A stretch of DNA of 46,024 bases from a virus. Taxonomy: Duplodnaviria; Heunggongvirae; Uroviricota; Caudoviricetes. How positions within the stretch are numbered: position 1 is the first letter of the stretch; each line of letters begins with the position of its first letter. Shown in pieces: positions 2,815 to 46,024 of this stretch. Under the pieces are notes generated by a model, which saw only the letters and a list, made by a program, of their open reading frames with translations, had not been told where the DNA came from and did no database searches. Location of the stretch: the IMG/VR virus record IMGVR_UViG_2718218133_000007; one strand, 5' to 3'. The translations under genes were made by a program, and so were the position numbers.

Positions 2815-3084
2815 TTAAGCCCATGTCCTTACATGCTGATCTGTCGTAATGAAAGGCATTAAAGAAGATATGTTTTTACTGCTATCAACAATCCTCATGT
2901 TTACGAAAAAACCACCGCGATCAATGCCCGTACATCTTTCGTTTTCTGGCTCCTCGTAATCAATAATGCAGCCAATAACATCAACAAGAACCCCATTTTC
3001 TTCTTCAAGACTGAACAGGCCACTGTCATATACAATTGCGTTAAACTGTTCTCTGTTATCGAATCGTAATGTTATATCCCGCAT
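2815..3084 (-). CDS. hypothetical small protein between the two fibre genes (89 aa)
   Basis: ORF start overlaps the stf stop (coupling-type arrangement); no family recognised. Confidence 0.35.
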   Translation of the reverse strand: MRDITLRFDNREQFNAIVYDSGLFSLEEENGVLVDVIGCIIDYEEPENERCTGIDRGGFFVNMRIVDSSKNISSLMPFITTDQHVRTWA

Positions 3085-5447
3085 TATACGTATTCCTTAA
3101 GCTGCGTATCTGACAATGCTCTGTTCCAGAAACGGAGGTTTTTTATATGACCATTAAGGTGTCGTAATCCTGTCGTCGTTTGCCCCCCGATTCGAATCAC
3201 GGCTGCTTCACGAATATATTTCCATACTGTTTTGGTTTCAGTGCTTATATGCTTATTTGCAAATGAGCATGTCATGCCGTCAGCCTTAACCCTGAATCCC
3301 ATAACGAGATCTCTTACTCCGCATGACTCATATACACGCCGGTTAGCCCCGCCTATATCGCAATACGAATAACCATCCTGACTGATAGTTCCAGAAGAAC
3401 CAAACCCCATAATAAATGGGCCTCCGGACTGGTGATTTTCTGAATCAATGACACGCGGTGCAGCATTATGAGAAATAAACCAGTTTTTATGGACTTCCAC
3501 CATGAACGTAAAAGGCATGGTATACATATTTTTCATCAGCGGAAATTTACATAAATCTGATGCACGAGTCGCTGGCTCTGTTGTCGTTATGATAAAGGAA
3601 GTTGCACAAGCACCATACTCGAATTGCGGGGTGGTTACTTCTATCCAGTCACCTGTTGCAAAAGCCCCCACTGCTCTGTCGGCTGCAATTTGCAGCTGCG
3701 TACCAACCATTCCCCATTCTGGCAGACATTTCAGTGTTGCCTGAAAATATATCCATCCACTACCAGGGTCGATTTCAAAGTTTGCTGTTAATAGCTGGGC
3801 ATTACCACCCGTAATTTGTAGTTCATGAGTCTGTAATGACAAATAGGCGTCACAAAGGAAAGTGTATCCTTCCGAGTTATACCGTTCAAAACGGATACGT
3901 GCGCGAACATTGAGATCACTTCTTACCCTGAACGACGCGGTAACATACGGACCTTTACTGTACTGATCATCGCCAGTCACATCTATGCCTTTATTACCAG
4001 CAACTGTGCATATATTTCTCCCTGTTGTCGTTCCTGCTATGTCGCTTCCTACTGTGAAACGTCCATATTTAAACTCAAATTCATCTGTTGATGATGTTAC
4101 AGATATACCACCGCTTTTATTCCACGCATCAGGATTAAAACTATTTACGAACATGTTTGTTCGCTGATTCTCTATCAGCAAACCATATTTTTCAAAACGA
4201 GGAACGTTATTCCCTGCCACGGTAATATGCCCGGACTTATCAATATACGTTGCTGATGAAGCGCGGCTAAATTGGCATATGCCATTAACAGGCATTGTTA
4301 TTTCATCACTGCCGATGGTTATTGTTTTATAGCCCGGGGCATACCCTGTTATCGCTTCCAGAGAATCATTCAAGGGTAGCCAGATATCAGGAAGCGGAGG
4401 GACTGAAGCAGGATCAGCGGCATCTTCTGCAATCCGGGCTGCATTCTCTGCTCTTGTTGCGGCTGACGTTGCTTCTATCTCGCTGGCTGCTGCTTTTGTT
4501 TCACTCGTCTTTGCGTTAGTTTCACTGGTTTTTGCAGCTTTTTGGCTATTAGCTGCCGCACTTGCAGAACCAGCTGCGGCACTCTCGCTTTGGGCCGCTG
4601 CATCCTGACTGTTTTTTGCCGCAGTTTCGCTGGCTTTGGCATTCGTTTCGCTGGTCTTCGCTGCCGTCTGGCTGGACTTTGCGTTAGTTTCACTCGTCTT
4701 CGCAGCTTTCTGGCTGTTAGCCGCAGCAGTTGCTGATCCAGCTGCTGAAGTCGCAGAACCGGCTGCTGCGCTCTCGCTTTCAGCTGCTGCAGCCTGGCTA
4801 TTTTTCGCCGCAGTTTCACTGGCTTTGGCATTCGTTTCGCTGGTTTTCGCTGCCGTCTGGCTGGACTTTGCGTTGGTTTCGCTCGTCTTTGCGGCTGTCT
4901 CGCTGTTTTTCGCGTTGGTTTCTGATTTTTTGGCTGCTGTCGCGGAGTTTGCCGATGCAGTCTGCGAGGACGCTGCCGCCTGTGCGCTGTTAGCTGCATT
5001 CGTTTCTGAGGTTTTCGCCGCGTTCTTCGATGATGCCGCTGCAGTTTCGGATTTCTTTGCCACCGCTGCGCTCTGAGAGGCGGCTTCGGCGTTGCGTGCC
5101 GCTTCTTCCACCATTGCCTCAAAACGACGCAATGCCTCCGGCATGACATCATCTTCCGTCATGGCACCGAGAAAATCATTCAGCGTACCTGGTCTGGAAC
5201 CTTCATAGACGGTAATGGTTCCGGCATGTGAAGGCGGAAAACCTTCAACCAGCAGGGTGACGCTGTACTGGCCATACTCAACATCCATGCTGTAACGCCC
5301 GGCTTCATCCGGATTTTCAGAGGCCACCGTGTTCACCAGTACCGTGGTGCTGTTACGCTTTGCCTTCAGTTGAATAGTGCAGTTCTGTATTGGTTTTCCC
5401 GCACCATCTTTCAGCACACCTGAGATTTTTACTGCTGCCATATCCAC
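3084..5447 (-). CDS. stf: side tail fibre protein Stf (lambda Stf-like N-terminus, Ala/Ser/Thr/Lys-rich repeat region, LamG/concanavalin-like C-terminus)
   Basis: 787-aa ORF; N-terminus MAAVKISGVLKDGAGKPIQNCTIQLKA… matches recalled lambda Stf; internal AAKTSETNAKSSQTAAK-type repeats; C-terminal …GHIKNLRFWNRALSDTQLKEYV typical of LamG-like domains; follows lom. Confidence 0.85.
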   Translation of the reverse strand: MDMAAVKISGVLKDGAGKPIQNCTIQLKAKRNSTTVLVNTVASENPDEAGRYSMDVEYGQYSVTLLVEGFPPSHAGTITVYEGSRPGTLNDFLGAMTEDDVMPEALRRFEAMVEEAARNAEAASQSAAVAKKSETAAASSKNAAKTSETNAANSAQAAASSQTASANSATAAKKSETNAKNSETAAKTSETNAKSSQTAAKTSETNAKASETAAKNSQAAAAESESAAAGSATSAAGSATAAANSQKAAKTSETNAKSSQTAAKTSETNAKASETAAKNSQDAAAQSESAAAGSASAAANSQKAAKTSETNAKTSETKAAASEIEATSAATRAENAARIAEDAADPASVPPLPDIWLPLNDSLEAITGYAPGYKTITIGSDEITMPVNGICQFSRASSATYIDKSGHITVAGNNVPRFEKYGLLIENQRTNMFVNSFNPDAWNKSGGISVTSSTDEFEFKYGRFTVGSDIAGTTTGRNICTVAGNKGIDVTGDDQYSKGPYVTASFRVRSDLNVRARIRFERYNSEGYTFLCDAYLSLQTHELQITGGNAQLLTANFEIDPGSGWIYFQATLKCLPEWGMVGTQLQIAADRAVGAFATGDWIEVTTPQFEYGACATSFIITTTEPATRASDLCKFPLMKNMYTMPFTFMVEVHKNWFISHNAAPRVIDSENHQSGGPFIMGFGSSGTISQDGYSYCDIGGANRRVYESCGVRDLVMGFRVKADGMTCSFANKHISTETKTVWKYIREAAVIRIGGQTTTGLRHLNGHIKNLRFWNRALSDTQLKEYV
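4440..5080. repeat. degenerate tandem DNA repeats (period about 189 bp, 63 codons) inside stf
   Basis: Near-identical blocks beginning ~4621 and ~4810 (…cagtttcgctggctttggcattcgtttcgctgg…), with further degenerate copies ~4440-4560; creates spurious alternative-frame ORFs. Confidence 0.6.
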
Positions 5448-9100: not shown

Positions 9101-9652
9101 CATCCTGCGCATCCGGATATTGAACGGGCGCGGCGGCAGGTTATCCACCACCACCGAGGCCAGATACTGCGAGGTGGTTTTGCCCTTAATGGTGATGTCT
9201 TTTTCCGTCACCCAGCCACCATTACGCTGTATCTGAACCAGCAGGCGGACTTCCGACGGATTCCGGTCCCCCTTTGAGGTGGTTTCCACCAGTGCCTGTA
9301 CACCGAAGGTAAAGCGCAGACGGTCGATGTTTGCCGACGTGATGGTCCGGGTGATCGGCGTGTCATATTTCACTTCCGTACCCAGCACCGTCTCGGAGCC
9401 GGAGGATTCAAATCCCTCCGGCGGTGACTGCTCCTGCTCACCGGTCCGGAACACCACCGTGACGCCGGAGATATTGGTATTCCCCTCACTGTCCAGCACC
9501 GGCGTACTGTTCAGCAGCACGCTTTTTAATCCGTCCACCGGACCTTCAACCGGCCCTTCGCTGATGGCATCGATCACACTCAGCAGCTGCGTGGACTTCA
9601 GGTTGTCCTTCGCTTCGCGCGGGGTATGCCCCTTACTGCTGCCTTTACCCAT
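6173..9652 (-). CDS. J: host specificity / central tail fibre protein J
   Basis: 1159-aa ORF; N-terminus and fibronectin-III region match recalled lambda J; extreme C-terminus diverges. Confidence 0.95.
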
Positions 9653-9712
9653 TCCTCACGCTCCATAAACGACAAAACCGCCCGCAGGCGGTTTCACATA
9701 AAACATTTTGCA

Positions 9713-10384
9713 TCAGCGACCAATCACCACAACCTGACCACCATCCCCTTCGTCTGCCGTGCTGATCTCCTGAGAAACCACGCGTGACCCCACGCGCATT
9801 TCACCGTACAGAACAGGCAGAACATTGCCCTGGGCAACCATGTTATCCAGTGAGGAGAAATAGGTGTTCTGTTTGCCGTTATCCGTTGTCTGTGTACGGG
9901 GAGTTCTGGCTTTCGGTGCCAGCATCTGCGCCACACCACCGAGCACCATACTGGCACCGAGAGAAAACAGGATGCCGGTCATACCACCGGCCCCAATGGC
10001 TGCCCCCCATGCTGCAAGGGTGGCTCCGGCAGTAAAGAATGATCCGGCAATGGCGGCTGCTCCCAGGACAATCTGGAATACGCCACCTGACTTGGCCCCG
10101 GCGACTCTGGGAACAATATGAATCACAGCGCCATCAGGCAGAGTCTCATGTAACTGCGCCGTTAACCCGGACGTGCTGACGTCCCGCCCGGCAATCCGTA
10201 CCTGATACCAGCCGTCGCTCAGTTTCTGACGAAACGCCGGGAGCTGTGTGGCCAGTGCGCGGATGGCTTCAGCCCCCGTTTTCACACGAAGGTCGATGCG
10301 GCGGCCAAATCGTTGCAAATCCCCGTAAAGGCAGATGCGCGCCATGCCCGGTGACGCCAGAGGGAGTGTGTGCGTCGCTGCCAT
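9713..10384 (-). CDS. I: tail tip assembly protein I
   Basis: 223-aa ORF matching recalled lambda I (MAATHTLPLASPGMARICLYGDLQRFGRR…); overlaps K by ~100 bp as in lambda. Confidence 0.9.
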   Translation of the reverse strand: MAATHTLPLASPGMARICLYGDLQRFGRRIDLRVKTGAEAIRALATQLPAFRQKLSDGWYQVRIAGRDVSTSGLTAQLHETLPDGAVIHIVPRVAGAKSGGVFQIVLGAAAIAGSFFTAGATLAAWGAAIGAGGMTGILFSLGASMVLGGVAQMLAPKARTPRTQTTDNGKQNTYFSSLDNMVAQGNVLPVLYGEMRVGSRVVSQEISTADEGDGGQVVVIGR

Positions 10385-12058: not shown

Positions 12059-14616
12059 CGTCCACCTCCGGAGAACAGACCACCATCACGCATCTGTGTC
12101 TGAATTTCATCACGGACACCCTTGCGGGCCATGTCATACACCGCCTTCAGAGCAGCCGGACCTATCTGCCCGTTCGTGCCGTCGTTGTTAATCACCACAT
12201 GGTTATTCTGCTCAAACGTCCCGGACGCCTGCGACCGGCTGTCTGCCATGCTGCCCGGTGTACCGACATAACCGCCGGTGGCATAGCCGCGCATCAGCCG
12301 GTAAAGATTCCCCACGCCAATCCGGCTGGTTGCCTCCTTCGTGAAGACAAACTCACCACGGTGAACAATCCCCGCTGGCTCATATTTGCCGCCGGTTCCC
12401 GTAAATCCTCCGGTTGCAAAATGGAATTTCGCCGCAGCGGCCTGAATGGCTGTACCGCCTGACGCGGATGCGCCGCCACCAACAGCCCCGCCAATGGCGC
12501 TGCCGATACTCCCGACAATCCCCACCATTGCCTGCTTAAGCAGAATTTCTGTCATCATGGACAGCACGGAACGGGTGAAGCTGCGCCAGTTCTGCTCACT
12601 GCCGGTCAGCATCGCCGCCATATTCTGTGCAATACCATCAAAGGTCTGCGTGGCTGCACTTTTTACCTGCGACATACTGTCCGTGGCGCTCTCTTCCCAC
12701 TCACTCCAGCCGGACTTCAGGCCTGCCATCCAGCTCCCGCGAAGCTGGTCTTCAGCCGCCCAGGTCTTTTTCTGCTCTGACATGACGTTATTCAGCGCCA
12801 GCGGATTATCGCCATACTGTTCCTTCAGGCGCTGTTCCGTGGCTTCCCGTTCTGCCTGCCGGTCAGTCAGCCCCCGGCTTTTCGCATCAATGGCGGCCCG
12901 TTTTGCCCGTTGCTGCTGTGCGAATTTATCCGCCTGCTGCGCCAGCGCGTTCAGGCGCTCCTGATACGTAACCTTGTCGCCAAGTGCAGCCAGCTGGCGT
13001 TTGTACTCCAGCGTCTCATCTTTATGCGCCAGCAGGGATTTCTCCTGTGCGGACAGCTGGCGACGTTGTGCCGCCTCCTCCAGTACCGCGAACTGACTTT
13101 CTGCCTTCCACAAATCCCGGCGCTGCTGGCTGATTTTCTCATTCGCTCCGGCATGCTTCTCCAGCGTCCGGAGTTCTGCCTGAAGCGTCAGCAGGGCAGC
13201 ATGAGCACTGTCTTCCTGACGATCGCCCGCAGACACTTTCACGCCGGACTGTTTCGGCTTTTTCAGCGTCGCTTCATAATCCTTTTTCGCCGCCGCCATC
13301 AGCGTGTTGTAATCTGCCTGCAGGATTTTCCCGTCTTTCAGTGCCTTGTTCAGTTCTTCCTGACGGGCGGTATATTTCTCCAGCGGCGTCTGCAGCCGTT
13401 CGTAAGCCTTCTGCGCCTCTTCGGTATATTTCAGCCGTGACGCTTCGGTATCGCTCTGCTGCTGCGCATTTTTGTCCTGTTGAGTCTGCTGCTCAGCCTT
13501 CTTTCGGGCGGCTTCAAGCGCAAGACGGGCCTTTTCACGATCATCCCAGTAACGCGCCCGCGCTTCATCGTTAACAAAATAATCATCCTTGCGCAGATTC
13601 CAGATGTCGTCTGCTTTCTTAAACGCAGCCTCTGCCTTAATCAGCATCTCCTGCGCGGTATCAGGACGACCAATATCCAGCACCGCATCCCACATGGATT
13701 TGAATGCCCGCGCAGTCCTGTCTGCCCAGGTCTCCAGCGTGCCCATGTTCTCTTTCAGGCGGCGGGTCTGGTCATCAAACCCTTTCGTTGCGGCCTCGTT
13801 CGCCGCCTGCAATGCCCCGGCTTCATCGCCGGAACGCTGCAACTGAGCAACATACGCAATCTGCTCCGCCGTCACGTTATGGAACTGGCGTGCCATCGCC
13901 GTCAGCCCCGACGTCGGGTCTGTGGTCAGCTTCCCGAAGGCTTCAGCGACCTTGTCCACCTCCACGCCGGATGCAGAGGAGAAACGCGCCACACTCTGGC
14001 TGATGGACGCAATCTGAGCCTCACCGCTTACCCCCGCCTTAACCAGTGCGCTGAGTGACTCGCTGGTCTGGTTAAACGTCAGCCCTGCCGCCTGCCCGGC
14101 TCTGGACAGGACCAGCATACGATCTGCCGTCAGACCCGACTGATGACCGGAAAGGACCAGCGTTTTGTTGAAATCGGACAGGGTTGAGTTGCCCTGATAC
14201 CAGGCATACGCCAGCGCACCGGTCGCCACCGCCAGCGAGGTGGCCCCCACCATCGGCAGGGTGATCGCACCGGCAAGCCCCCTGAACATGGGGATCATCC
14301 CGCCGAAGGAGTCCTTCACCTGCCCCCCCTGTTGCAGCAGGATCAGCCACGGACTTTGCCCGCCTGCAAGCTGCGTGGCCACGTCAGTGAACTGCGCAGG
14401 CAGCATACGCATGGCAGCTTTATACTGCCCGACGGAAATCCCCGCTTTCTGTGCAGCCAGCGCCTGTCGGCTCAGCGACTGTTCAACGACTGCCGCTGTT
14501 TTTTTCGCATCACTTTCCGTACCGGAAAAATGACGCCTGACTCTGGCCATCTGCTCGTCAAATCTGGCCGCATCCAGACTCAAATCAACGACCAGATCGC
14601 CTACCGGTTCAGCCAT
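12055..14616 (-). CDS. H: tail tape measure protein H
   Basis: 853-aa ORF (lambda H length), Ala/Gln-rich coiled-coil centre, Gly-rich C-terminus. Confidence 0.9.
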   Translation of the reverse strand: MAEPVGDLVVDLSLDAARFDEQMARVRRHFSGTESDAKKTAAVVEQSLSRQALAAQKAGISVGQYKAAMRMLPAQFTDVATQLAGGQSPWLILLQQGGQVKDSFGGMIPMFRGLAGAITLPMVGATSLAVATGALAYAWYQGNSTLSDFNKTLVLSGHQSGLTADRMLVLSRAGQAAGLTFNQTSESLSALVKAGVSGEAQIASISQSVARFSSASGVEVDKVAEAFGKLTTDPTSGLTAMARQFHNVTAEQIAYVAQLQRSGDEAGALQAANEAATKGFDDQTRRLKENMGTLETWADRTARAFKSMWDAVLDIGRPDTAQEMLIKAEAAFKKADDIWNLRKDDYFVNDEARARYWDDREKARLALEAARKKAEQQTQQDKNAQQQSDTEASRLKYTEEAQKAYERLQTPLEKYTARQEELNKALKDGKILQADYNTLMAAAKKDYEATLKKPKQSGVKVSAGDRQEDSAHAALLTLQAELRTLEKHAGANEKISQQRRDLWKAESQFAVLEEAAQRRQLSAQEKSLLAHKDETLEYKRQLAALGDKVTYQERLNALAQQADKFAQQQRAKRAAIDAKSRGLTDRQAEREATEQRLKEQYGDNPLALNNVMSEQKKTWAAEDQLRGSWMAGLKSGWSEWEESATDSMSQVKSAATQTFDGIAQNMAAMLTGSEQNWRSFTRSVLSMMTEILLKQAMVGIVGSIGSAIGGAVGGGASASGGTAIQAAAAKFHFATGGFTGTGGKYEPAGIVHRGEFVFTKEATSRIGVGNLYRLMRGYATGGYVGTPGSMADSRSQASGTFEQNNHVVINNDGTNGQIGPAALKAVYDMARKGVRDEIQTQMRDGGLFSGGGR

Positions 14617-24967: not shown

Positions 24968-25144
24968 TGTTCATTCCACGGACAAAAACAGAGAAAGGAA
25001 ACGACAGAGGCCAAAAAGCTCGCTTTCAGCACCTGTCGTTTCCTTTCTTTTCAGAGGGTATTTTAAATAAAAACATTAAGTTATGACGAAGAAGAACGGA
25101 AACGCCTTAAACCGGAAATTTTTCATAAATAGCGAAAACCCGCG

Positions 25145-27751: not shown

Positions 27752-27806
27752 GGTAATGCTGCCAACTTACTGATTTAGTGTATGATGGTGATTTTAAGGT
27801 GCTTGC

Positions 27807-28082
27807 GTGGCTTCCATTTCCATCAGATGTCCTTCCTGCTCCGCTACTGAAGGCGTGGTGCGTAACGGCAAAAGCACTGCCGGACATCAGCGCTATCTCT
27901 GCTCTCATTGCCGTAAAACATGGCAACTGCAGTTCACTTACACCGCTTCTCAACCCGGTACGCACCAGAAAATCATTGATATGGCCATGAATGGCGTTGG
28001 ATGCCGGGCAACTGCCCGCATTATGGGCGTTGGTCTCAACACGATTTTACGTCACTTAAAAAACTCAGGCCGCAGTCGGTAA
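27807..28082 (+). CDS. insA: IS1 InsA
   Basis: 91-aa [43 protein letters not shown]… matches recalled IS1 InsA (zinc finger + HTH). Confidence 0.9.
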
Positions 28083-28504
28083 CCTCGCGCATACAGCCGG
28101 GCAGTGACGTCATCGTCTGCGCGGAAATGGGCGAACAGTGGGGCTATGTCGGGGCTAAATCGCGCCAGCGCTGGCTGTTTTACGCGTATGACAGGCTCCG
28201 GAAGACGGTTGTTGCGCACGTATTCGGTGAACGCACGATGGCGACGCTGGGGCGTCTTATGAGCCTGCTGTCACCCTTTGACGTGGTGATATGGATGACG
28301 GATGGCTGGCCGCTGTATGAATCCCGCCTGAAGGGAAAGCTGCACGTAATCAGCAAGCGATATACGCAGCGAATTGAGCGGCATAACCTGAATCTGAGGC
28401 AGCACCTGGCACGGCTGGGACGGAAGTCGCTGTCGTTCTCAAAATCGGTGGAGCTGCATGACAAAGTCATCGGGCATTATCTGAACATAAAACACTATCA
28501 ATAA
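28001..28504 (+). CDS. insB: IS1 InsB (expressed as InsAB' transposase by -1 frameshift)
   Basis: 167-aa ORF matching recalled InsB; overlaps insA in -1 frame across the A6C motif (~28058-28064). Confidence 0.9.
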
Positions 28505-28519
28505 GTTGGAGTCATTACC

Positions 28520-32853: not shown

Positions 32854-33016
32854 GATTCCTCCTTGCTGCCAGTCGCAACCATTTTTTATCAACCAGGCTG
32901 GCGGTATATCCGAGCAGTGTTGGTATTTCGGAAGGCTTCAGCTCCGGTTTACGCTTACGACGATCTGGTACTCTGTAGATGTGTCCGTTCATGACACGAA
33001 TAAGCGGTGTAGCCAT
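32846..33016 (-). CDS. ninE: NinE-like small protein (56 aa)
   Basis: Hand-translated ORF below the 60-aa track cutoff: [56 protein letters not shown]; start overlaps ybcN stop, stop overlaps ybcO start. Confidence 0.6.
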   Translation of the reverse strand: MATPLIRVMNGHIYRVPDRRKRKPELKPSEIPTLLGYTASLVDKKWLRLAARRNHG

Positions 33017-33471
33017 TACGCCTCCTGCTTGTCGCGGAGCAGCTGGAACTCGCAGCTCTGCGGAATAGTCAGGTGGCAGCCAATATTCACCGCCCAGGCT
33101 TCAACCTTACACAGGAAGACATACATCTCTCCGGTATCAAGATCGGAGGTATGGCGTAACGACTGGATAGTGGTGATATCACCGGTTACGACATCAACCA
33201 GGTCTTTGGTTTCATAACCGAGATATGTGTGTTTGAGAGCATCTTTTACCCAAGCTGGAGTAGCGAACGTTTTACCCCTGCTGATGAGGTATTCACTGAT
33301 TTCGCTGTACCACATGTGGCTGAGTGCATTCTGGGAAAGACTGCGTTTCTCACGCCACGGTTTAAGCACCATGCGAAAGCATTTGCCCTCCTCCAGATAA
33401 GGCTGGATCTGCCGACCGATAGCGGTGAAGTTACCGCGATGTAATTTGATGCCATCTTGTGGGAGATTCAC
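33016..33471 (-). CDS. ybcN: YbcN-like protein (DUF1367)
   Basis: 151-aa ORF at the ybcN position of DLP12-type nin regions. Confidence 0.7.
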
Positions 33472-33658
33472 GCTTCACCTCCGCAGAGGTCAAACGCTGG
33501 ATACAATATATCGCAGGTGCATTTCTGCATCTGTGGAGGGAGAAGAGAGTTTGGATTGTGTGTGCGCATAAACGTCCCCGTTTAGCGCAGAAGTCACCGG
33601 AGTTGTTCAGGCTCCGATGACATGATTATGGCGAGTTGATTATCGCAAATCAAAGGTT

Positions 33659-34015
33659 TTAATTGTGCTTTATTCCTTCAAGCGTTGCCTTCATACCAAC
33701 CAAAGAAATGTTTAGCTCTCCAACTTTCTCAGGGCTATATAATTCAGAATGAAGCCAATATTCTGATTTATCTAAACATCTTTTAGCCAGCTCTCGATCA
33801 AAGTCTACGACTTGGGAAGACGCTTCATACCAAAGTCTATAAAGTTTTTCTTCTTCGTTTGGGTTATTAGGCTCACCACGTTTTAATTTTTCAGTATATA
33901 AAATTGTTGAATAAATCGCAGGAGTTAATCCAGTGATTGCCCTCTGCCGCAGATCGGATTTGTTTGTTATCCACCCCAACAGACGATCTCCCATCCATGT
34001 GATAATTGTATCCAT
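33659..34015 (-). CDS. hypothetical protein (118 aa), no family recognised
   Basis: ORF with plausible RBS (aagaaggg…ATG); AT-rich relative to flanking nin genes; occupies the position where K-12 DLP12 has ybcM/ybcL. Confidence 0.45.
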   Translation of the reverse strand: MDTIITWMGDRLLGWITNKSDLRQRAITGLTPAIYSTILYTEKLKRGEPNNPNEEEKLYRLWYEASSQVVDFDRELAKRCLDKSEYWLHSELYSPEKVGELNISLVGMKATLEGIKHN

Positions 34016-34476
34016 GCTTTAGCCCTTCTTAGTAAATAGTGTGTAGGGCGACTGAAGGACCGAGTTTATGCTTTTTCGCATTGCTTTCAGTTAGTACACC
34101 GGTATCGCACCGGAAACAATCCTACGGCAAATTGGTTGTCTGACCTCTCGGTTTTTCGTGCATTAACCGATACCCACTACAGTCTCGGCGAAAGCTGCAC
34201 ACCCCCAGGGTGTACTGGTAGCACTCGGCACAGCCTAGCACGCCACTTTCTTCTCACTATCCAGTCTAATTTTATCCCCTAGTCAGACACTCAGATGTAG
34301 TGCTCCGCAGCGGCATGCGGGGGAATACAAAAACTCGGACAAAATTGGGCCCTCCTTTTTGAATCACTCGCGGGGATGTAGTTATTAATACATGGAAAAA
34401 GATCTGTTTTCAAATCCAACATTATATGGTTTCAATACCACGGGGTGGCTATGTGTTTCTCATTGTTAATTGGAAT

Positions 34477-34800
34477 CTACTGTAATCGATCCGAACGTAA
34501 ATGCGGCAAAACTCGACTCCACTTATCATCCTGCCACGGCCGGAATTTTACATGTGCCGTTTCTCTGGCAAGGATTGCCTGTGCCTTATTGAGTATCTGG
34601 GGATATTCTTGCTCGATAGAAGTGAAGCGACCAGCTTCACGATGCTCCGCAACCTGAAGAAGAGGAGTAACGTTCTGGTAGGTAATTAACATCACATTCC
34701 CTGCTCGCCATAACCAGGCGAGTGTGCAAAGTTCGTTATCAGTGAATTGTTTTGTGATTGGGTATTGTTGAACTGCTAGAACGAGAACGCCAGCATCCAT
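34477..34800 (-). CDS. hypothetical protein (107 aa), no family recognised
   Basis: ORF downstream of ybcK on the same strand; no recognisable motifs. Confidence 0.4.
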   Translation of the reverse strand: MDAGVLVLAVQQYPITKQFTDNELCTLAWLWRAGNVMLITYQNVTPLLQVAEHREAGRFTSIEQEYPQILNKAQAILARETAHVKFRPWQDDKWSRVLPHLRSDRLQ

Positions 34801-34911
34801 TGGCAGTCTCTATAGTAAAACCATAGCTCAGGACGCTTCGTTCAGGATAGATAATTTTATTGTACTTACCTAACTTTCTTACTATAGCACGGTTGAAAAA
34901 GTGATTATTAC

Positions 34912-36438
34912 TCAAAAATAAACCTCACCATCAACCATATATTTGAGAGTACTTATCGCCTGCTGGGCGGATATTGTTTTCATTAAAGGATAGTGTTTAA
35001 AAACAATGCCATTCATAAAATAGATATCACAGGTTTTATTATCTGTATTGATTATGATTTTTTCGAATGTTTTATAGGCAAGTGTACGACATAGCTCTCG
35101 CCCATTTTTACTGGTTAAGTCAATAGCATGAAAATCACCAAGTGAACTCACCGCTTTACTCTTCAAAGTTTTTAATGATACAGAAGCCCTTCGTAATTCC
35201 TTATCTAATACTCTGATTTTTTCTGCTATAGCGGTAACTTCAGGCGCAACAGATAATGCAGCAATTAAATTATTAATTTTCATCTGGAGCTCAATAATTT
35301 TCAACTCTAAAGTTTCATTAGCATCTTTCTTGTTTTCAACTGGTTGGATTTTACTACAATTAAAAAGCAACTCATTAATGATATTATAATCAACCAAATC
35401 TCTCTTTATTGATGGCCTGTCACATCGATGCAGTCTTCTCATCGGACAAACATAATAGCCATGCAAACTTCCAGATACCGCATGAACAATCATGGTATTA
35501 CCACAAGCCTCGCACTTCATAACTGTTCGAAGTAGATTTATCAACATAGGATTTTTGCTACTATTGCTAATACCAAAAGGTGCCAACCGAATTTCCTGTA
35601 CAGCGTAAAACAAATCATCTGATATGACTCTGGGATAATAGCCAGCGATTTCACTTATTCCTTTACCTCTTGCACGATATGAAGGTACGCATATACCTAT
35701 CAGAGCTTTATTCGCTAATAATTTTTCAATTACAGAAGGTCCCCATGCACTTTCTTTTCCTGAGAAATTCTTTACAGCATGATCATTTAAATACTTGGCT
35801 ATTGCATTCAATGAGCGCCTTTCCATCCTGAGTTTAAAAATTAGCTCAATAGTTTTCACCCTGTCGGGGTCTGGAACAAAAGCCGTTCTTTTGTCATCTA
35901 AGGAGAGCCATCTCGGACAAGACGCCGTCATAATCGTACCTGATTCCAGTGCATCCTGCCGTTTTTTCTTCCATGATAATTTAACCCGACTTGACTTTAT
36001 CTCGCTTTCTTCATTTGCCCTTTGTGCTATAAGTATGGCTTTTATTAATGAATATGGCTCATTCAAAGAGTCAATATTATAGACTGTATTGTCGCAAAGA
36101 GTTATAACATCAATACCGTGATTCAAAATCAATTTCAGACGTTCAATCGCTTCACCGACTTTTTCTCTTGAAAGTCTGTCCAGACTTTCAACTAACAATG
36201 TAGTTCCTGGCAATATATAACCATGCTCTATAGCATCTAAAAATTCCGAAAAAGCTCCTGATTGTGCATGCTTTCCTTTGAATGCACTTAATCCTAAATC
36301 TTCATATGTTATGGTATCAAGATAATAATCACTATTTACCTTTAACCATTCAGCAATAAGTCTTCTCTGTCGGTTTAATGAGTCGCCAGACATCTGACCT
36401 GGTGATGAAAATCGCATATATGCTATGGCTTTTTTCAT
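34912..36438 (-). CDS. ybcK: large serine recombinase (resolvase/invertase-type N-terminal domain, recombinase domain, zinc ribbon, coiled coil), YbcK-like
   Basis: 508-aa ORF; N-terminal …AIAYMRFSSPGQ… with candidate catalytic Ser; Cys cluster CEACG…C…C; AT-rich; adjacent to emrE as in DLP12. Confidence 0.75.
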   Translation of the reverse strand: MKKAIAYMRFSSPGQMSGDSLNRQRRLIAEWLKVNSDYYLDTITYEDLGLSAFKGKHAQSGAFSEFLDAIEHGYILPGTTLLVESLDRLSREKVGEAIERLKLILNHGIDVITLCDNTVYNIDSLNEPYSLIKAILIAQRANEESEIKSSRVKLSWKKKRQDALESGTIMTASCPRWLSLDDKRTAFVPDPDRVKTIELIFKLRMERRSLNAIAKYLNDHAVKNFSGKESAWGPSVIEKLLANKALIGICVPSYRARGKGISEIAGYYPRVISDDLFYAVQEIRLAPFGISNSSKNPMLINLLRTVMKCEACGNTMIVHAVSGSLHGYYVCPMRRLHRCDRPSIKRDLVDYNIINELLFNCSKIQPVENKKDANETLELKIIELQMKINNLIAALSVAPEVTAIAEKIRVLDKELRRASVSLKTLKSKAVSSLGDFHAIDLTSKNGRELCRTLAYKTFEKIIINTDNKTCDIYFMNGIVFKHYPLMKTISAQQAISTLKYMVDGEVYF

Positions 36439-36694
36439 GGTGACACCTGCTAACGTATGCTTTTATAAACCTTAGTGGTGGGATATAATTTTTGTTTAAT
36501 TTTTATTTAAAAAGACAATTAAGGTCACATTATCTTGAATATACAACAATAATCGTATTGCAATTTTCTTACGCCATAATCTTGAAAGCACAAAAGAATA
36601 CATAAAAAAATAAAGACATTAACAAAAAGCATAAAACGAGGCTCATATAAATATAAGAGCCTCCATATTTTAGTCGTTTAGAAACAAATTATTT

Positions 36695-37027
36695 TTAATG
36701 TGGTGTGCTTCGTGACAATAAATTAATAACCAACACACCGGCACAAATCAACATCATGCCTATAATGGCTGGCAGGTCCAGCCGTTGGCCGAAAAGTCCC
36801 CATGACAGTAAGCTAATCAGGACAATACCGACTCCTGACCAGATAGCATAAGCAATCCCTGTAGGAATATAAGCCAGCGTCTGAGCTAATAACCAGAATG
36901 ATGCACAATAACAAATAATTGTACCAACAGATGGCCATAACCGTGTAAAACCTTCTGAAAACTTCATTAAGGTTGTACCAATGACCTCTGCAAGTATTGC
37001 ACCACCAAGATAAATATAAGGGTTCAT
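36695..37027 (-). CDS. emrE: small multidrug resistance efflux transporter EmrE
   Basis: 110 aa from MNPYIYLGGAILAEVIGTTLMKFSEGF… matches recalled EmrE; four TM segments; ORF track extends to 37081. Confidence 0.9.
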   Translation of the reverse strand: MNPYIYLGGAILAEVIGTTLMKFSEGFTRLWPSVGTIICYCASFWLLAQTLAYIPTGIAYAIWSGVGIVLISLLSWGLFGQRLDLPAIIGMMLICAGVLVINLLSRSTPH

Positions 37028-37094
37028 AGAATATTCTTTCCTGTTCAAACTGGAGAGAATTGTACTACAGTTTGAACTCAACTCACCTGTTTCA

Positions 37095-37397
37095 TCATTG
37101 TGTACCCATTGATGTTCTTTTATATACCCTCAATACCCGTTTCATCGCGGCACTCTGGCGACACTCCTTAAAAATCAGATTCGTGCTCACCTTTCCTTCC
37201 CGTTCTTCTCTGGTAGCAAACCGGTAATACACCGTTCGCCAGACCTTACCTTCGATAGCCAGAAGACCTGCCCGTGCCATTTTAGCCGCAGCCTGATTTA
37301 TGCTGGTTACCGTTGCGCCTGTTACCGCGGCAACGTCCTGCGCACAGAATTTCTTATGAGTCCCCAGGTAATGAATAATTGCCTCTTTGCCCGTCAT
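37095..37397 (-). CDS. ren: Ren-like protein
   Basis: 100-aa ORF MTGKEAIIHYLGTH…QAAAKMARAGLL… matching recalled lambda Ren; overlaps P stop. Confidence 0.85.
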   Translation of the reverse strand: MTGKEAIIHYLGTHKKFCAQDVAAVTGATVTSINQAAAKMARAGLLAIEGKVWRTVYYRFATREEREGKVSTNLIFKECRQSAAMKRVLRVYKRTSMGTQ

Positions 37398-38095
37398 ACC
37401 CTTGCTCCTTTCAGCCCAAACTTAGCTTTGATTTCTGCGATCTTCGCCAGAGCCTGTGCACGATTTAGAGGTCTACCGCCCATGACAGGAAGTTGTTTTA
37501 CTGGTTCAGGTATAGCCTCACCACGGTTAATTCGTGCGGTCATACAGGACAGTTCATCGGCAGCCTTGCGCCGTAATTCCGCGTCAGTCAACGCATTGGC
37601 CCGCATGTTCTGATACAGGTTGGTAACCAGCCAGTAGTGCGCGTTTGATTTCCACGGATAAGACTCTGCATCCGGATACAGCCCGCGCTTCCGGCAATAC
37701 TCGTAAACCATATCAACCAGCTCGCTGGCGTTTGGCAGCCCGGCGGTAACGGATGCTTCTTCCCGGCACCAGGCGACAAACTGCCCGGGTGATGGCAGGA
37801 ATGGTCGATTCTGCCGACGGGCTACGCGCATTCCAGCGTTAACCTGTTCCATTGTGGTGATCCCGTTTTCCCGAAAAGCCAGCACCCACTGGCGGCGGAT
37901 TTCGTTCAGTTCATTCTGGTCACGGTTAGCCAGGCTCGCCGGGAAAGTTGCCAGTAACTGGCTGAACACACCGTTGATGATCTGCGCTACCTGCTGTACC
38001 TGCGGCTTTTCGTCGTACTGTTCCGGCATGTTGTTGGCGATCCGACGCATCTGCTCACGGTCAAAGTTAACCATCTGTGCGGCGATGTTTTTCAT
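37394..38095 (-). CDS. P: replication protein P (DnaB helicase loader)
   Basis: 233-aa ORF matching recalled lambda P. Confidence 0.9.
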   Translation of the reverse strand: MKNIAAQMVNFDREQMRRIANNMPEQYDEKPQVQQVAQIINGVFSQLLATFPASLANRDQNELNEIRRQWVLAFRENGITTMEQVNAGMRVARRQNRPFLPSPGQFVAWCREEASVTAGLPNASELVDMVYEYCRKRGLYPDAESYPWKSNAHYWLVTNLYQNMRANALTDAELRRKAADELSCMTARINRGEAIPEPVKQLPVMGGRPLNRAQALAKIAEIKAKFGLKGARV

Positions 38096-39111
38096 AAATC
38101 CACCCCGTAAATCCAGTCAGTGTTTGTCAGGTCGAGTTTTGGTTTGCTGGCTATCATGCCTGCCTGTTGCTTGTTACGGTTGATTTCGAGTTGGGTCCAC
38201 TTGTCGCGGAGTTTGGCCGGACTTAGCACGTTACCGGACCAGAAGTTGTCCTGGCATGCCCAGCGGAAAAGCACGCACATGTCGCGGTGGTTACGTCCGT
38301 CACGTTCACGCATCAGGCGGATATCGTTAGCCCACCCTGCAAAATTCGGTTTTCTGGCTGATGGTGCGATGGTCTTCACCATGTCAAACATCCACTCTGC
38401 GGCGGTCAGGTCTTCTGCTGTCCCCCACTTGCTGCCGCTCTGAATTGCAGCATCTGGTTTCACCACAGGAAGATCGTTTTCTGGTTGGTCAGAGGATTCG
38501 CCAGAATTCTCGGACGAAAAAGGTTTTATATTGTCTTTTGTTAGTTTGTCTTTTGTGTTTACCTGATTCGGGTAAACGCCTTTACCTGATTTGGGTAAAC
38601 TTTTCTTACCTGATTCAGGTAAATTTACCTCTTTCAGGTAAACTTTATTTTTCTTACCTGATTCGGGTAATGTTGACCATTCACTGACCACATTATTAAT
38701 ACCGATATTCCGCCCGCTCTGAATCAAAATCCCACGCTTTACCAGAACACTTTTTGCAGCAGAACACTTGTGCGGTAATATCCCGGTCAATCCGGACAGT
38801 TGCTCGTTGCTCACCCAATCCAGTTTTTTATTAAAGCCATATGTTTTGCGCATGACAGCCAGGAAGACCAGAAGCTGGTGCTGTGTTAATCCGGCCAGCA
38901 TCACAGCTTCCAGCAACTCATTTGCAATGCGCGTATAACCATCATCGAGATCTGCCACGCGCGGCTCCTTTTGTGCCGCATCCGGCACTGGAAAATTGAA
39001 TATCTCAGCAGTGTTTGCCATAATTCCTCCCGCAATGAGTGTGTTACGATTTGCACCTGAAAGTCGGTTCTGTTCCAGCAGACCGGCTTTCGCCATTTCT
39101 GAACCTGTCAT
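38092..39111 (-). CDS. O: replication initiator protein O (contains ori)
   Basis: N- and C-terminal regions resemble lambda O; iterons inside the gene; start codon uncertain (Met1, Met6 or Met31 of the track ORF). Confidence 0.85.
   Translation of the reverse strand: MTGSEMAKAGLLEQNRLSGANRNTLIAGGIMANTAEIFNFPVPDAAQKEPRVADLDDGYTRIANELLEAVMLAGLTQHQLLVFLAVMRKTYGFNKKLDWVSNEQLSGLTGILPHKCSAAKSVLVKRGILIQSGRNIGINNVVSEWSTLPESGKKNKVYLKEVNLPESGKKSLPKSGKGVYPNQVNTKDKLTKDNIKPFSSENSGESSDQPENDLPVVKPDAAIQSGSKWGTAEDLTAAEWMFDMVKTIAPSARKPNFAGWANDIRLMRERDGRNHRDMCVLFRWACQDNFWSGNVLSPAKLRDKWTQLEINRNKQQAGMIASKPKLDLTNTDWIYGVDL
38558..38672. repeat. origin iterons (4-5 copies of a ~19-20-bp unit tacctgattcgggtaaa-like) with adjacent AT-rich tract
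   Basis: tttacctgattcgggtaaac, tttacctgatttgggtaaac, cttacctgattcaggtaaat, ttacctctttcaggtaaac, cttacctgattcgggtaatg read directly; AT-rich segment at ~38520-38557. Confidence 0.8.
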
Positions 39112-44662: not shown

Positions 44663-45005
44663 GGCCTGTCAGTTTCTTAAGATATCCAGACCAACCGCCA
44701 CCAACTGGATACGAACAGGCCGCCTACAGGCAACACGTAAAGATCCAACCAAGCCAAAATCTCCTTACCTCACAACACGGCAAGCCTGCATTGCGGCGCT
44801 TCAGTCTCCGCTGCATACTGTCCAGGTGAGCGCGGGTGATGGCATAACAGAGGAAAGAAAATGTCACTCTTCCGCAGAAATGAAATATGGTATGCCTCGT
44901 ATTCGCTCCCGGGCGGGAAACGAATTAAGGAATCTCTTGGCACAAAGGACAAGCGGCAAGCTCAGGAGTTGCACGACAAGCGAAAAGCAGAACTCTGGCG
45001 AGTAG
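44634..45005 (+). CDS. xis: excisionase-like HTH protein (Xis/AlpA-type); C-terminal extent uncertain
   Basis: N-terminal …[29 protein letters not shown]… excisionase-family HTH; directly upstream of and overlapping int; ORF is longer than typical Xis. Confidence 0.5.
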
Positions 45006-46024
45006 AAAAGCTAGGGGATTTACCTGATGTCACTTTTGAAGAGGCCTGCCTAAGATGGCTTGAGGAAAAAGCTGATAAAAAATCTCTCGATTCAGATAAA
45101 AGCCGGATTGAGTTCTGGCTTGAACATTTTGAGGGTATAAGGCTTAAAGATATCTCGGAGGCAAAGATTTACTCTGCTGTAAGCAGAATGCATAACAGAA
45201 AGACGAAAGAAATATGGAAACAGAAAGTTCAGGCCGCCATCAGGAAAGGTAAAGAACTGCCTGTTTATGAACCAAAGCCAGTATCAACTCAGACAAAGGC
45301 AAAGCATCTTGCCATGATAAAGGCCATTCTCCGTGCTGCAGAACGCGACTGGAAGTGGCTGGAAAAAGCGCCTGTCATCAAGATACCAGCGGTCAGAAAC
45401 AAGCGAGTCAGATGGCTGGAAAAGGAGGAAGCAAAACGCCTTATTGATGAGTGCCCCGAACCACTGAAATCTGTCGTCAAGTTTGCGCTGGCAACTGGTC
45501 TGAGAAAGTCGAACATCATAAATCTGGAATGGCAACAAATCGACATGCAGCGACGAGTTGCCTGGGTGAATCCAGAAGAGAGCAAATCAAACCGCGCCAT
45601 TGGTGTGGCGCTGAACGATACCGCCTGTAAAGTGTTGCGTGATCAAATAGGCAAGCATCACAAATGGGTGTTTGTACATACCAAGGCGGCTAAGCGAGCA
45701 GATGGAACATCAACGCCTGCGGTCAGGAAGATGCGCATCGACAGCAAGACATCATGGCTATCAGCTTGTCGTCGTGCAGGAATTGAAGATTTCCGTTTCC
45801 ATGACCTCAGACACACCTGGGCAAGCTGGCTGATTCAGTCAGGCGTCCCATTATCAGTGCTTCAGGAAATGGGCGGATGGGAGTCCATAGAAATGGTTCG
45901 TAGGTATGCTCACCTTGCGCCTAATCATTTGACAGAGCATGCGAGGAAAATAGACGACATTTTTGGTGATAATGTCCCAAATATGTCCCACTCTGGAATT
46001 ATGGAGGATATAAAGAAGGCGTAA
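44861..46024 (+). CDS. intD: tyrosine integrase (IntD-like, DLP12 type)
   Basis: 387-aa ORF; C-terminal catalytic region [11 protein letters not shown]…MVRRYAHL (R…HxxR…Y); matches recollection of DLP12 IntD; stop at window end. Confidence 0.9.

Follow-up and report, generated by a model that had tools for sequence, protein, structure and literature searches.

The emrE–ybcK block and its two proteins

The window analyzed here is the whole 46,024-nucleotide stretch of the Caudoviricetes record IMGVR_UViG_2718218133_000007, which is 99% identical to phage Turner. Inside its early-right operon, between ren and ninB (33016-33471), lies a block made up of emrE and ybcK, with ren, P and O on one side and ninB on the other, and all of these genes are on the minus strand (Table 1). 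A preliminary description made from the letters alone had recognized a 508-aa large serine recombinase and an EmrE efflux pump in an AT-rich block of the replication/nin region, apart from the phage integrase, and each of these points is borne out. The recombinase carries the Pfam domains Resolvase, Recombinase and Zn_ribbon_recom, the 110-aa EmrE scores above the cut-off of its NCBIfam family, and the GC content falls to 33-40% over positions 35001-37000 compared with ~50% or more in the adjoining replication and nin genes. Further, ybcK is internal, and a separate integrase ORF of 387 aa occupies 44861-46024 at the end of the window; in phage Turner, the corresponding gene carries the annotation ‘integrase’ and adjoins a tRNA gene fragment. 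The limits first proposed for the block, 34801-37094, lie 13 and 27 bp from the boundaries of 34788 and 37121 that we obtained by comparison with other phages.

Table 1. Features of the emrE–ybcK block and its borders, in window coordinates.
Feature	Position	Strand	Basis or remark
ren (Ren-like exclusion protein, 100 aa)	37095..37397	-	PHROG 142, E = 1.8e-41
Right inverted repeat, 10-bp arms, 15-nt spacer	37043..37077		exact repeat
emrE, SMR proton/drug antiporter, probable moron	36695..37027	-	PF00893, NF042984
Intrinsic-terminator-like hairpin	36638..36663	-	fold z = -2.6, pairing kept
ybcK upstream non-coding region	36439..36694	-	PMC3946193, PMC4150792, conservation
ybcK, intact large serine recombinase, 508 aa	34912..36438	-	Pfam, PHROG 95, residues, fold
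Left inverted repeat, 9-bp arms, 60-nt spacer	34810..34887		in 3' flank of ybcK
3' flank of ybcK	34788..34911		common to lineages to varying extents; left end = left junction
Truncated antirepressor (Rha/Ant), only C-terminal P22AR_C domain left	34477..34800	-	P22_AR_C, E = 1.1e-15

EmrE matches PF00893 (E = 3e-35) and, over its full length (residues 1-110), the NCBIfam model SMR_efflux_EmrE (NF042984; 239.6 bits against a cut-off of 226). It encodes a proton-coupled efflux pump for cationic drugs and is a probable lysogenic-conversion gene. Its leader would include the 10-bp repeat, and the hairpin 3' of the gene would act as its terminator. This hairpin, GAGGCUC-N12-GAGCCUC followed by a U-rich tract, lies ~30 nt downstream of emrE, and only 3 of 200 shuffled sequences fold equally well. 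Its pairing is kept in the O157 prophages and in phage 4A7 through one A-U to C-G change and G-U wobble pairs. No hairpin-homologous sequence was found in strain BH100, where the locus lacks ybcK, and the hairpin is therefore assigned to the ybcK unit.

YbcK has the domains by which a large serine recombinase is defined, namely a catalytic domain (PF00239, E = 7.7e-19, residues 4-161), a recombinase domain (PF07508, E = 2.3e-14) and a four-cysteine zinc ribbon (PF13408, E = 8.2e-08) with an embedded coiled coil, and it matches the ‘integrase’ family PHROG 95 (E = 4e-120). Residues R9, S11, D87, R88 and R91 and the cysteines C309, C312, C331 and C339 are invariant in 12 full-length relatives; in an alignment of 56 sequences D87, R88 and R91 remain invariant, with conservation of 90% or more at R9 and S11. 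The AlphaFold2 model (pLDDT 82.6) has long helices at residues 346-397 and 402-429, and its best Foldseek matches are full-length serine integrases in complex with att DNA (E = 1e-19), including 9dxd/9dxh, Bxb1 (9iu2) and PhiC31 (9tep). A search of PDB sequences at a threshold of 1e-3 gave no match, so that the integrases are recognized only by the fold search.

YbcK thus resembles the phage serine integrases of Bxb1, PhiC31, A118/LI and TP901-1 in its serine-nucleophile catalytic domain, recombinase domain, four-cysteine zinc ribbon and long coiled coil. Its predicted full-length fold matches phage serine integrase–DNA complexes with E-values of 1e-19 to 1e-12 at a sequence identity of 14-19%. 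Unlike these integrases, it has at its C terminus (about residues 444-508) an additional alpha/beta domain (PHROG 2371, unknown function). A PADLOC scan of YbcK, EmrE and two neighbours detected no defence-system family. The dN/dS of ybcK is 0.05-0.11 in 9 of 10 pairwise comparisons, and purifying selection this strong, even in defective DLP12 remnants, indicates that the gene is in use. Judged by these sequence features, YbcK is complete and looks catalytically competent.

Junctions and inverted repeats

The junctions of the block were placed by alignment with phages that lack it, and left breakpoints were collected from 80 IMG/VR loci and five annotated loci. Alignment with IdasGreatGrand and PhiR5_1 puts the left junction at 34787/34788; this point lies within a truncated Rha/antirepressor gene, 22 bp beyond the left repeat. 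In PhiR5_1 the Rha gene is full-length, and its 3' part shares 88% identity with the antirepressor fragment; IdasGreatGrand likewise has a full-length gene at this position. The right junction, at 37122-37152, is in the 3' end of ren and clears the right repeat by 45 bp or more. The emrE-less phages PhiR5_1, 434, HK140 and SfI match the window again from 37122, some E. coli prophages from 37131 and IdasGreatGrand from 37152. The last 8-9 codons of ren (37095-37121) are thus part of the inserted block, which puts the right mosaic junction inside ren.

IdasGreatGrand matches the window over 33000-34787 and 37152-38500 and has a different cargo of 2.26 kb in between, while PhiR5_1 matches 34495-34787 and then from 37122 onward. 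Sites without the block are not empty and instead hold alternative cargo of similar length. The left breakpoints are nested and number seven or more, among them 34903, 34873, 34846, 34629, 34578 and 34495-34505. Those at 34846, 34873 and 34903 belong to other lineages and fall in the ybcK 3' flank, and the O157 breakpoint corresponds to a deletion of ~230 bp between two GATAG microhomologies. The comparison of prophages with and without the block, which had been suggested as a check on the idea that the repeats border it, gave edges at 34787/34788 and 37122-37152, neither of which lies in a repeat, an outcome named beforehand as contrary to that idea. No inverted or excised variants of the block were found among the genome-search matches listed or in the 80 IMG/VR loci, and none of the long-range repeats across the whole window involve the ybcK flanks.

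Both short inverted repeats are present exactly where they had been described. In the left repeat CTATAGTAA (34810-34818) pairs with TTACTATAG (34879-34887), and in the right repeat GTTCAAACTG (37043-37052) pairs with CAGTTTGAAC (37068-37077). In shuffled sequence, perfect 9-bp inverted repeats with a loop of at most 80 nt are expected 1.5 times per 3.3 kb (at least one in 63% of shuffles), which makes the left repeat unremarkable. The right repeat is mildly unusual, as only 0.15 repeats with 10-bp arms and a loop of at most 30 nt are expected (at least one in 12% of shuffles). When folded as RNA and compared with shuffled sequence, the left repeat has z = +0.71 and the right one z = -0.36; neither folds better than the shuffles.

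Among the lineages compared, the window, Turner and AST216 alone have a perfect left repeat. Its right arm reads ACCATAG in 4A7, and in O157 and BL21 this variant right arm is present and the left arm is missing entirely. The left repeat is a chance, lineage-specific palindrome. The arms of the right repeat are complementary at 10 of 10 positions in Turner, BL21, O157 and 4A7 and at 9 of 10, with an uncompensated mismatch, in AST216 and in BH100, where the repeat accompanies emrE into a locus without ybcK. It sits between the stop codon of ren and the ribosome-binding site of emrE and is therefore best regarded as an element of the emrE leader rather than a border of the block.

The two repeats are unrelated in sequence, each a separate local palindrome, and no partner copy of either motif was found near the block. 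Terminal inverted repeats would be inverted copies of each other at the insertion boundaries; the ends of this block are not such copies, and its repeats do not coincide with the boundaries. Neither did we find att-like, direct or terminal repeats linking the two borders. Ordinary terminators had been named as a reading of the repeats that would speak against the cassette. A terminator scan called neither of them: the loop of the left repeat is 60 nt long, and the right repeat is followed by AGGAAAG and ATG rather than a T-run. An Rfam scan of 34000-37600 (E ≤ 1) returned no match, and there is accordingly no known riboswitch or other RNA element at either repeat.

Distribution, separability and expression

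The block is the already annotated, widespread emrE–ybcK module of the DLP12 prophage and as such an ordinary feature. Gene order and orientation in the DLP12 segment renD-emrE-ylcJ-ybcK-ybcL-ybcM of E. coli K-12 and B are identical to those of the window through ybcK, and from ren through ybcK the modules of DLP12, 4A7, 4C10, Perceval and Turner are 95-100% identical to the window at the nucleotide level. The leader repeat, the terminator hairpin and the ybcK promoter region are common to the window and the DLP12-type module. Downstream of ybcK, the two differ, with the truncated antirepressor fragment in the window and ybcL-ybcM in DLP12. The order ren-emrE-ybcK recurs in BL21 DLP12, K-12-derived strains and O157 prophages as well as in phages 4A7, 4C10, Perceval, 1W, 3W and PhiR34_1. 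A search for ybcK found it in 1426 of 5426 complete E. coli genomes, in one or two copies each and never more than two, and in 12 records of the phage collection. The same unit was not found at several unrelated sites or in many copies within E. coli across these 1426 genomes.

Sequence comparisons show that emrE and ybcK are separable and have had different histories. In 2624 of the 5426 genomes emrE directly adjoins ybcL without ybcK, and an emrE-ybcL-ybcM arrangement without ybcK is found beside fliE; the only part of the window that matches this fliE-adjacent remnant is the unit at 36687-37104. Between the window and 4A7, the synonymous divergence of ybcK is 0.17 and that of emrE 0.04. Within E. 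coli, ybcK is linked to emrE in all 77 informative IMG/VR loci, and one locus (L063) considered as a case of ybcK without emrE was rejected since it reflects an IS1 insertion at a contig end. YbcK homologues of 38-61% identity in Atlantibacter, Yersinia, Erwinia, Ewingella, Pantoea, Citrobacter and Duffyella never adjoin emrE. In a comparison of Duffyella plasmids, the recombinase lies between two differently distributed blocks, while a search of plasmids with a Pantoea locus gave mainly matches to an ISNCY element next to it.

Where BL21 has 2083 bp containing ybcK, ylcJ and flanks, a gap of 4 bp separates emrE from ybcL in strains BH100 and HH45. The difference between the ybcK unit and the emrE-ybcL arrangement is thus a fairly tidy indel of ~2.08 kb, an observation that also fits the ancient insertion of a small mobile unit. 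Inspection by eye of the ends of the BL21/BH100 indel for att-like symmetry revealed nothing convincing, and the junction is fuzzy.

The region upstream of ybcK, which also holds the small ylcJ reading frame, is conserved in sequence in BL21, O157, 4A7 and AST216. A genomic SELEX study lists a sigma-70 promoter motif and an ‘HNS’ mark in the emrE–ybcK spacer (PMC3946193), and this promoter maps to GTGACC (36528-36523) and TAAAAA (36505-36500) in the window. A Rho/NusG-dependent terminator, ‘tybcK’, has been reported in the ybcK leader (PMC4150792). In another study, the K-12 ybcK gene is reported to lie in a polyphosphate-dependent Hfq binding site, of a kind that the authors of that study link to prophage silencing. 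In the lysogen, ybcK would probably be kept largely silent. The gene is co-directional with the early-right operon, and once the phage is induced or infects, N-antiterminated transcripts should therefore extend into it. Among the papers found in literature searches on a recombinase, defence or nin-region role of YbcK, none reports such an activity; they comprise expression and silencing studies and one phenotype in sabinene tolerance upon overexpression and knock-out.

Origin of the block

We consider it probable that emrE and ybcK are two independent morons lying side by side in the variable ren–ninB slot of a DLP12/lambda-like prophage. Morons, as described by Hendrix, Juhala and colleagues, are additional genes that lie among conserved ones and bring a promoter and a terminator of their own. 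The block resembles the morons of lambdoid phages in its deviant (low) GC content, its presence or absence between syntenic phages, its flanking hairpin terminator and its place in the replication–nin slot, and likewise in having a reported promoter of its own (PMC3946193). It differs from them in that a site-specific recombinase is an unusual cargo for this slot and that the left join of the block cuts a neighbouring gene instead of being intergenic. Comparisons among the phages suggest that lambdoid phages would exchange the block through homologous recombination in the conserved flanks, P/ren on one side and the nin genes on the other, and occasional illegitimate joins would cut neighbours, as seen here for the antirepressor gene and for ren at its end. 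Action of YbcK at the two small inverted repeats would have no part in this; its strand exchange, of the serine-recombinase type, would take place between two sites away from the block borders.

Of the earlier suggestion of an embedded recombinase-associated cassette, what stands is a discrete AT-rich accessory block that is carried or absent among related phages; what falls is the role of the inverted repeats as its borders. The repeats are not recombination borders, and the segment itself is common, with about one in four sequenced E. coli genomes carrying it. YbcK is intact and under strong purifying selection, and the active lambda-like phages that carry it possess an integrase and a Pin-type invertase already. 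Its target sites, if found, would show whether it benefits the phage, the host or only itself, and YbcK could become an E. coli-native serine recombinase for the genome-engineering toolbox.

A less ordinary origin, which we regard as unlikely, is that ybcK and its flanks (~2.1 kb) are a present or former self-mobilizing minimal element that was inserted between emrE and ybcL in an ancestor of DLP12, with its relatives inserted independently in nin regions, tail-fibre-proximal prophage ends and plasmids. The 2083 bp of BL21 set against the 4-bp emrE–ybcL gap of BH100 and HH45 would suit such an insertion, as would the makeup of the family: its members stand alone, flanked by 80-500 bp of non-coding DNA, occur in either orientation and in many contexts unrelated to each other, and differ from their surroundings in base composition. 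Serine recombinases are known from transposons and insertion sequences such as Tn4451 (TnpX), Tn5397 (TndX) and the IS607 family. The ybcK relatives are like these in that a serine recombinase is the sole mobility gene and occurs in solo copies in phages and plasmids; they are unlike them in that ybcK lacks defined common ends and multiple sites in E. coli, where it never exceeds two copies per genome and keeps a constant position adjoining emrE.

Large serine recombinase att sites span ~40-50 bp, with an imperfect dyad around a 2-bp crossover, and have only the 2-bp core in common, so that a cryptic att site near ybcK may escape sequence analysis. The flanks of the family members have no common sequence, and non-coding conservation around 11 members is confined to ~70 nt of leader shared by two close relatives; no terminal or flanking sequence is thus conserved across the family, which speaks against such an element. 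At the E. coli locus, identity decays gradually toward the ybcL-side junction and the edge of the indel is fuzzy by ~60 bp. In addition, diverged partial duplications of a neighbouring gene flank two relatives (DUF1367' in L025 and P' in L124), which points to phage–phage recombination rather than clean site-specific insertion, and the features of the unit match the ordinary definition of a moron.

In a wider and similarly doubtful form of this idea, YbcK-type proteins would constitute an Enterobacterales-confined clade of solo large serine recombinases that recur at the mosaic joints of lambdoid prophages (nin region and tail-fibre end) and on plasmids, either as minimal self-mobilizing elements or as the enzymes that make the joints, through fusion at pseudo-att sites of phage or plasmid genomes present in the same cell. 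Joint-making, if true, would explain the cut or duplicated neighbours, namely Rha' in the window, DUF1367' in L025 and P' in L124.

It is very unlikely that YbcK is a second phage integrase with an attP beside ybcK that would give access to an alternative chromosomal site. The match to the ‘integrase’ family PHROG 95 and the predicted fold are consistent with such a role, and the genes of several relatives close off a prophage, beside chromosomal genes such as ssrA/smpB or lepA, but a prophage end is also a usual place for morons. Unlike the genes of phage serine integrases, ybcK is not placed as a prophage integration module: it lies in the middle of an early operon, ~8-10 kb from the prophage end, with another integrase at the end of the window, and no directionality factor or att site for YbcK was identified, nor any att-like dyad beside the gene. 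Further, the DLP12 and O157 prophages that carry ybcK have a terminal integrase and occupy argU and icd, sites typical of tyrosine integrases. In the E. coli loci examined, the only breaks in the ybcK flanks, of prophage or of homology, are IS insertions.

Finally, a single emrE–ybcK cassette that YbcK excises, inserts or inverts at the bordering inverted repeats is extremely improbable: the repeats do lie just inside the comparison boundaries (by 22 and 45 bp), YbcK looks catalytically competent and linkage to emrE holds in 77 of 77 informative E. coli IMG/VR loci, but the junctions fall inside genes and outside the repeats, the left repeat is at chance level and unconserved and its 60-nt spacer is unlike a serine-integrase att site of 40-50 bp, the right repeat stays with emrE where ybcK is missing, the two are unrelated and have no partner copies, block-less sites are filled with cargo of similar length rather than being empty, and neither the matches listed nor the 80 IMG/VR loci include an inverted or excised variant. 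In one IMG/VR locus the left repeat is split by an IS-sized insertion of ~1.3 kb at 34862, and strain IR53017 has an annotated IS2 in the left-repeat region.

The emrE-ybcK segment between ren and ninB

The sequence is a lambda/DLP12-like prophage that runs from the tail side to the integrase gene at its right end, and Escherichia phage Turner is 99% identical to it across the compared region 33600-38100. The early-right operon reads, on the minus strand, cro, cII, O, P, ren, emrE, spacer, ybcK, truncated antirepressor, small ORFs, ninB, ninE, ybcO and rusA. The preliminary description placed a large serine recombinase, YbcK, and EmrE in an AT-rich block inside the replication/nin region, and this is borne out: the protein family assignments hold, GC content drops to 33-40% across 35001-37000, and the block sits between ren, with O and P beyond, and ninB. 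The block is already known, as it is the long-annotated emrE-ybcK segment of the cryptic E. coli prophage DLP12 and many sequenced phages carry it.

Features of the ren-ninB region and left breakpoints in related loci (window coordinates)
Feature	Position	Strand	Remark
ninB	33016-33471	minus	
Few small ORFs	between truncated antirepressor ORF and ninB	minus	
Truncated antirepressor ORF	34477-34800	minus	
Left inverted repeat	34810-34887		
ybcK	34912-36438	minus	product with three Pfam domains of large serine recombinase
emrE-ybcK spacer			256 bp
Hairpin with U-rich tract	36638-36663		intrinsic-terminator-like, downstream of emrE
emrE	36695-37027	minus	product passes curated NCBIfam cut-off
Right inverted repeat	37043-37077		
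ren	37095-37397	minus	
P	37394-38095	minus	
O	38092-39111	minus	
Integrase	44861-46024		387-aa ORF at right end of window
Left breakpoints	34903 and 34873		DLP12 type, ybcL-ybcM next
Left breakpoint	34846		O157
Left breakpoint	34629		4A7 type, alpha/beta hydrolase next
Left breakpoint	34578		two IMG/VR loci
Left breakpoint	34495-34505		30 IMG/VR loci

IdasGreatGrand, a sibling of Turner, is homologous to the window at 33000-34787 and 37152-38500 and carries a different 2.26-kb cargo in place of the block, while homology to phage PhiR5_1 covers 34495-34787 and then continues from 37122 on. Among the matches listed, homology to the emrE-less lambdoid phages 434, SfI and HK140 and the Stx1 phages also restarts at 37122, and in some E. 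coli prophages it restarts at 37131. Because the homology of block-less phages stops and restarts at these points, the block extends from 34788 to 37121-37151, within 13 and 27 bp of the limits first proposed. The left join falls inside an antirepressor gene that is full-length in PhiR5_1 and IdasGreatGrand and reduced to its P22AR_C domain in the window, and the right join falls within the final 8-9 codons of ren. Block-less sites are not empty but hold alternative cargo, which looks like allelic replacement through homologous recombination in the conserved flanks; site-specific excision would give a different pattern.

The left border is not fixed: breakpoints are nested across the five annotated loci and 80 IMG/VR loci that we surveyed. 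Comparison of the O157:H7 locus (L005, 3964-4005) with the window at 34578-34619 and from 34846 indicates that the O157:H7 prophage derives from a window-like arrangement by a ~230-bp deletion between two GATAG microhomologies (34615-34619 and 34846-34850), a loss that included the left repeat arm and the greater part of the antirepressor remnant.

The two genes are also separable. In E. coli strain BH100 emrE directly adjoins ybcL-ybcM, without ybcK, as it does in 2624 of 5426 complete E. coli genomes; the majority of emrE genes in E. coli therefore lie outside DLP12 and lack ybcK. These contiguous emrE-ybcL copies are ~90% identical to the DLP12 copies, and in BH100 and HH45, the strains that were inspected, they lie inside a prophage remnant beside fliE that holds an nmpC/ompC-like porin gene, ybcM, ybcL and emrE (BH100 locus L001, 4483-6342; HH45 locus L106). 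HH45 is a recombinant between the two emrE/ybcL alleles. The only part of the window that matches the BH100 locus is 36687-37104. ybcK was found in 1426 of the 5426 genomes, with at most two copies per genome, and in each of the 77 informative IMG/VR loci it is linked to emrE; the one apparent exception is explained by an IS1 insertion. Synonymous divergence between the window and phage 4A7 is 0.17 for ybcK and 0.04 for emrE, and the two genes have therefore had different histories. Their joint travel in E. coli is a matter of descent rather than mutual dependence.

Taken as a whole, and including the readings of YbcK and of the repeats given below, emrE and ybcK are probably two adjacent morons in the ren-ninB slot, which would have been assembled and exchanged via homologous and illegitimate recombination. 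Relative to the emrE-ybcL locus, DLP12 of BL21 has 2083 bp extra, consisting of ybcK, ylcJ and flanks, with gradual identity decay at the ybcL-side junction that leaves its edge fuzzy by ~60 bp. It is unlikely that ybcK is a former self-mobile 2-kb mini-element.

YbcK, its expression and its relatives

The nucleophile S11, residues R9, D87, R88 and R91 and the four zinc-ribbon cysteines are invariant in 12 full-length YbcK relatives, and most of them keep at least 90% conservation when 56 sequences are aligned. Nine of ten pairwise comparisons among E. coli alleles give a dN/dS of 0.05-0.11; the tenth, BL21 against O157, has only 7 differences and gives 0.20. An AlphaFold2 model (pLDDT 82.6) predicts catalytic, recombinase and zinc-ribbon domains, a long coiled coil and an extra C-terminal alpha/beta domain. 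Its best Foldseek matches are full-length complexes of serine integrases with att sites, Bxb1 and PhiC31 included (E = 1e-19 to 1e-12), whose structures the predicted fold resembles. From residue conservation, dN/dS, the model and the fold matches we conclude that YbcK is predicted to be a working large serine recombinase and no decaying relic. We found no paper on recombinase activity of YbcK in the literature.

Compared with shuffled sequence, the hairpin that follows emrE folds significantly better (z = -2.6). One compensatory change in O157 turns an A-U into a C-G pair, and other pairs are preserved through G-U wobble in O157 and 4A7. This hairpin is absent from the ybcK-less emrE-ybcL locus and is therefore part of the ybcK unit, not of emrE. 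In K-12, a sigma-70 promoter (GTGACC-17-TAAAAA) has been reported in the emrE-ybcK spacer, in a table row marked 'HNS' (PMC3946193), and maps to 36528-36500 on the minus strand of the window. Other K-12 studies have described a Rho/NusG-dependent terminator within the ybcK leader (PMC4150792), polyphosphate-dependent Hfq binding at ybcK in work on prophage silencing (PMC10954037), and a sabinene-tolerance phenotype on both overexpression and knock-out of ybcK (PMC7181518). Judging from gene orientation, N-antiterminated early transcription would read into ybcK, and YbcK is probably an intact, largely silenced serine recombinase that would act at putative sites.

YbcK homologues with 38-61% identity occur only in Enterobacterales and are always solo, with emrE never adjoining. 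Some lie in the nin region of lambdoid prophages (Atlantibacter L025/L109; Pantoea L012, L124), others on plasmids or conjugative elements with unrelated cargo on either side (Duffyella, Pantoea, Citrobacter koseri). A third setting is the prophage end, after tail-fibre and fibre-assembly genes (Atlantibacter L007, adjoining ssrA; Yersinia L010; Erwinia L013; Ewingella L017/L111/L112; Pantoea L118), with Citrobacter L113 as a variant convergent with the tail genes. Orientation is not conserved among loci, and no common flank sequence was found among the relatives. In L025 the recombinase is flanked by a truncated, diverged DUF1367' copy (82% identity; 9623-9851 against 12609-12831) and in L124 by such a copy of replication gene P' (75%; 9256-9693 against 12164-12751). 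These partial neighbour-gene duplications point to joins between phage genomes, and the recombinase gene seems to sit at the joint of two different ones. The prophage-end position fits an integrase or a b-region moron alike; that YbcK serves as a secondary integrase of the phage is quite improbable.

In Turner (L024, 11795-12385), a small Pin/Gin-type DNA invertase gene adjoins the tail-fibre assembly gene and, added to the terminal integrase and YbcK, brings Turner-type phages to three site-specific recombinases. At the Atlantibacter locus L007 (10070-10432), a prophage with Mu-type baseplate genes ends with the YbcK relative (59% identity); 540 bp separate this gene from the 3' end of the intact tmRNA gene ssrA, a position where an integrase would be expected. 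In the C. koseri locus L015 (6145-11986), a conjugative-element context, the relative has a PilV/shufflon-type pilin gene on one side and fragmented prepilin-like ORFs on the other, and a (TTGTTTC)n simple repeat is found at least ~200 bp upstream of it. The arrangement could reflect insertion into a pil operon or, alternatively, a pilin switch under recombinase control.

The two inverted repeats

Both repeats are exactly where the preliminary description put them, but as borders of the block they miss the joins, lying 22 bp (left) and at least 45 bp (right) inward. Perfect 9-bp inverted repeats with loops of up to 80 nt are expected 1.5 times per shuffled 3.3-kb region, at least one occurring in 63% of shuffles, so the left repeat is unremarkable; the right repeat is mildly unusual because 10-bp repeats with loops of up to 30 nt are expected only 0.15 times. 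RNA folding of either was no better than that of shuffled sequence, and neither resembles an intrinsic terminator, a reading that we rejected. The motifs are mutually unrelated, and no extra copies of either were found near the block.

Among the loci compared, only the window, Turner and AST216 have a perfect left repeat; the right arm reads ACCATAG in 4A7, O157 and BL21, and the last two lack the left arm. The right repeat is conserved wherever emrE occurs, with full 10/10 complementarity in four other lineages; BH100 and AST216 have 9/10, with uncompensated mismatches. Because it follows the ren stop codon and precedes the Shine-Dalgarno sequence of emrE, it is read as a putative emrE leader element, the left repeat being presumably a chance palindrome. 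A cassette bordered by these repeats and mobilised by YbcK is very improbable, given repeats that lie inside the joins, a variable left border, separable genes, and no inverted, excised or relocated variant among the matches listed from genome-wide searches or the 80 IMG/VR loci.

A second perfect 10-bp inverted repeat, TTGAAAGTCT gtcc AGACTTTCAA, within ybcK (36168-36191) covers codons of the conserved ESLDRLSRE catalytic motif and is probably coincidental.

Other features of the window

A complete IS1 of 768 bp with both terminal inverted repeats (27752-28519) is inserted immediately upstream of the holin/lysis genes, where it may interfere with expression of the late operon, and the prophage could therefore be defective. 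In one IMG/VR locus, L063, the sequence also breaks into IS1 at this left junction (~27735). A 21-bp (7-codon) tandem periodicity with a 189-bp higher-order repeat (4450-5030) lies inside a 787-aa minus-strand ORF (3084-5447), which probably encodes a repetitive tail-fibre or side-fibre protein. Five copies of a ~20-bp palindromic iteron (TTTACCTGATTCGGGTAAAC) inside the O gene (38554-38672) constitute the lambda-type replication origin. Finally, a strong hairpin at 24992-25048 (25-nt arms, 84% complementary, 7-nt loop) is located where GC falls from ~53% to ~34%; it could act as a terminator between two modules.
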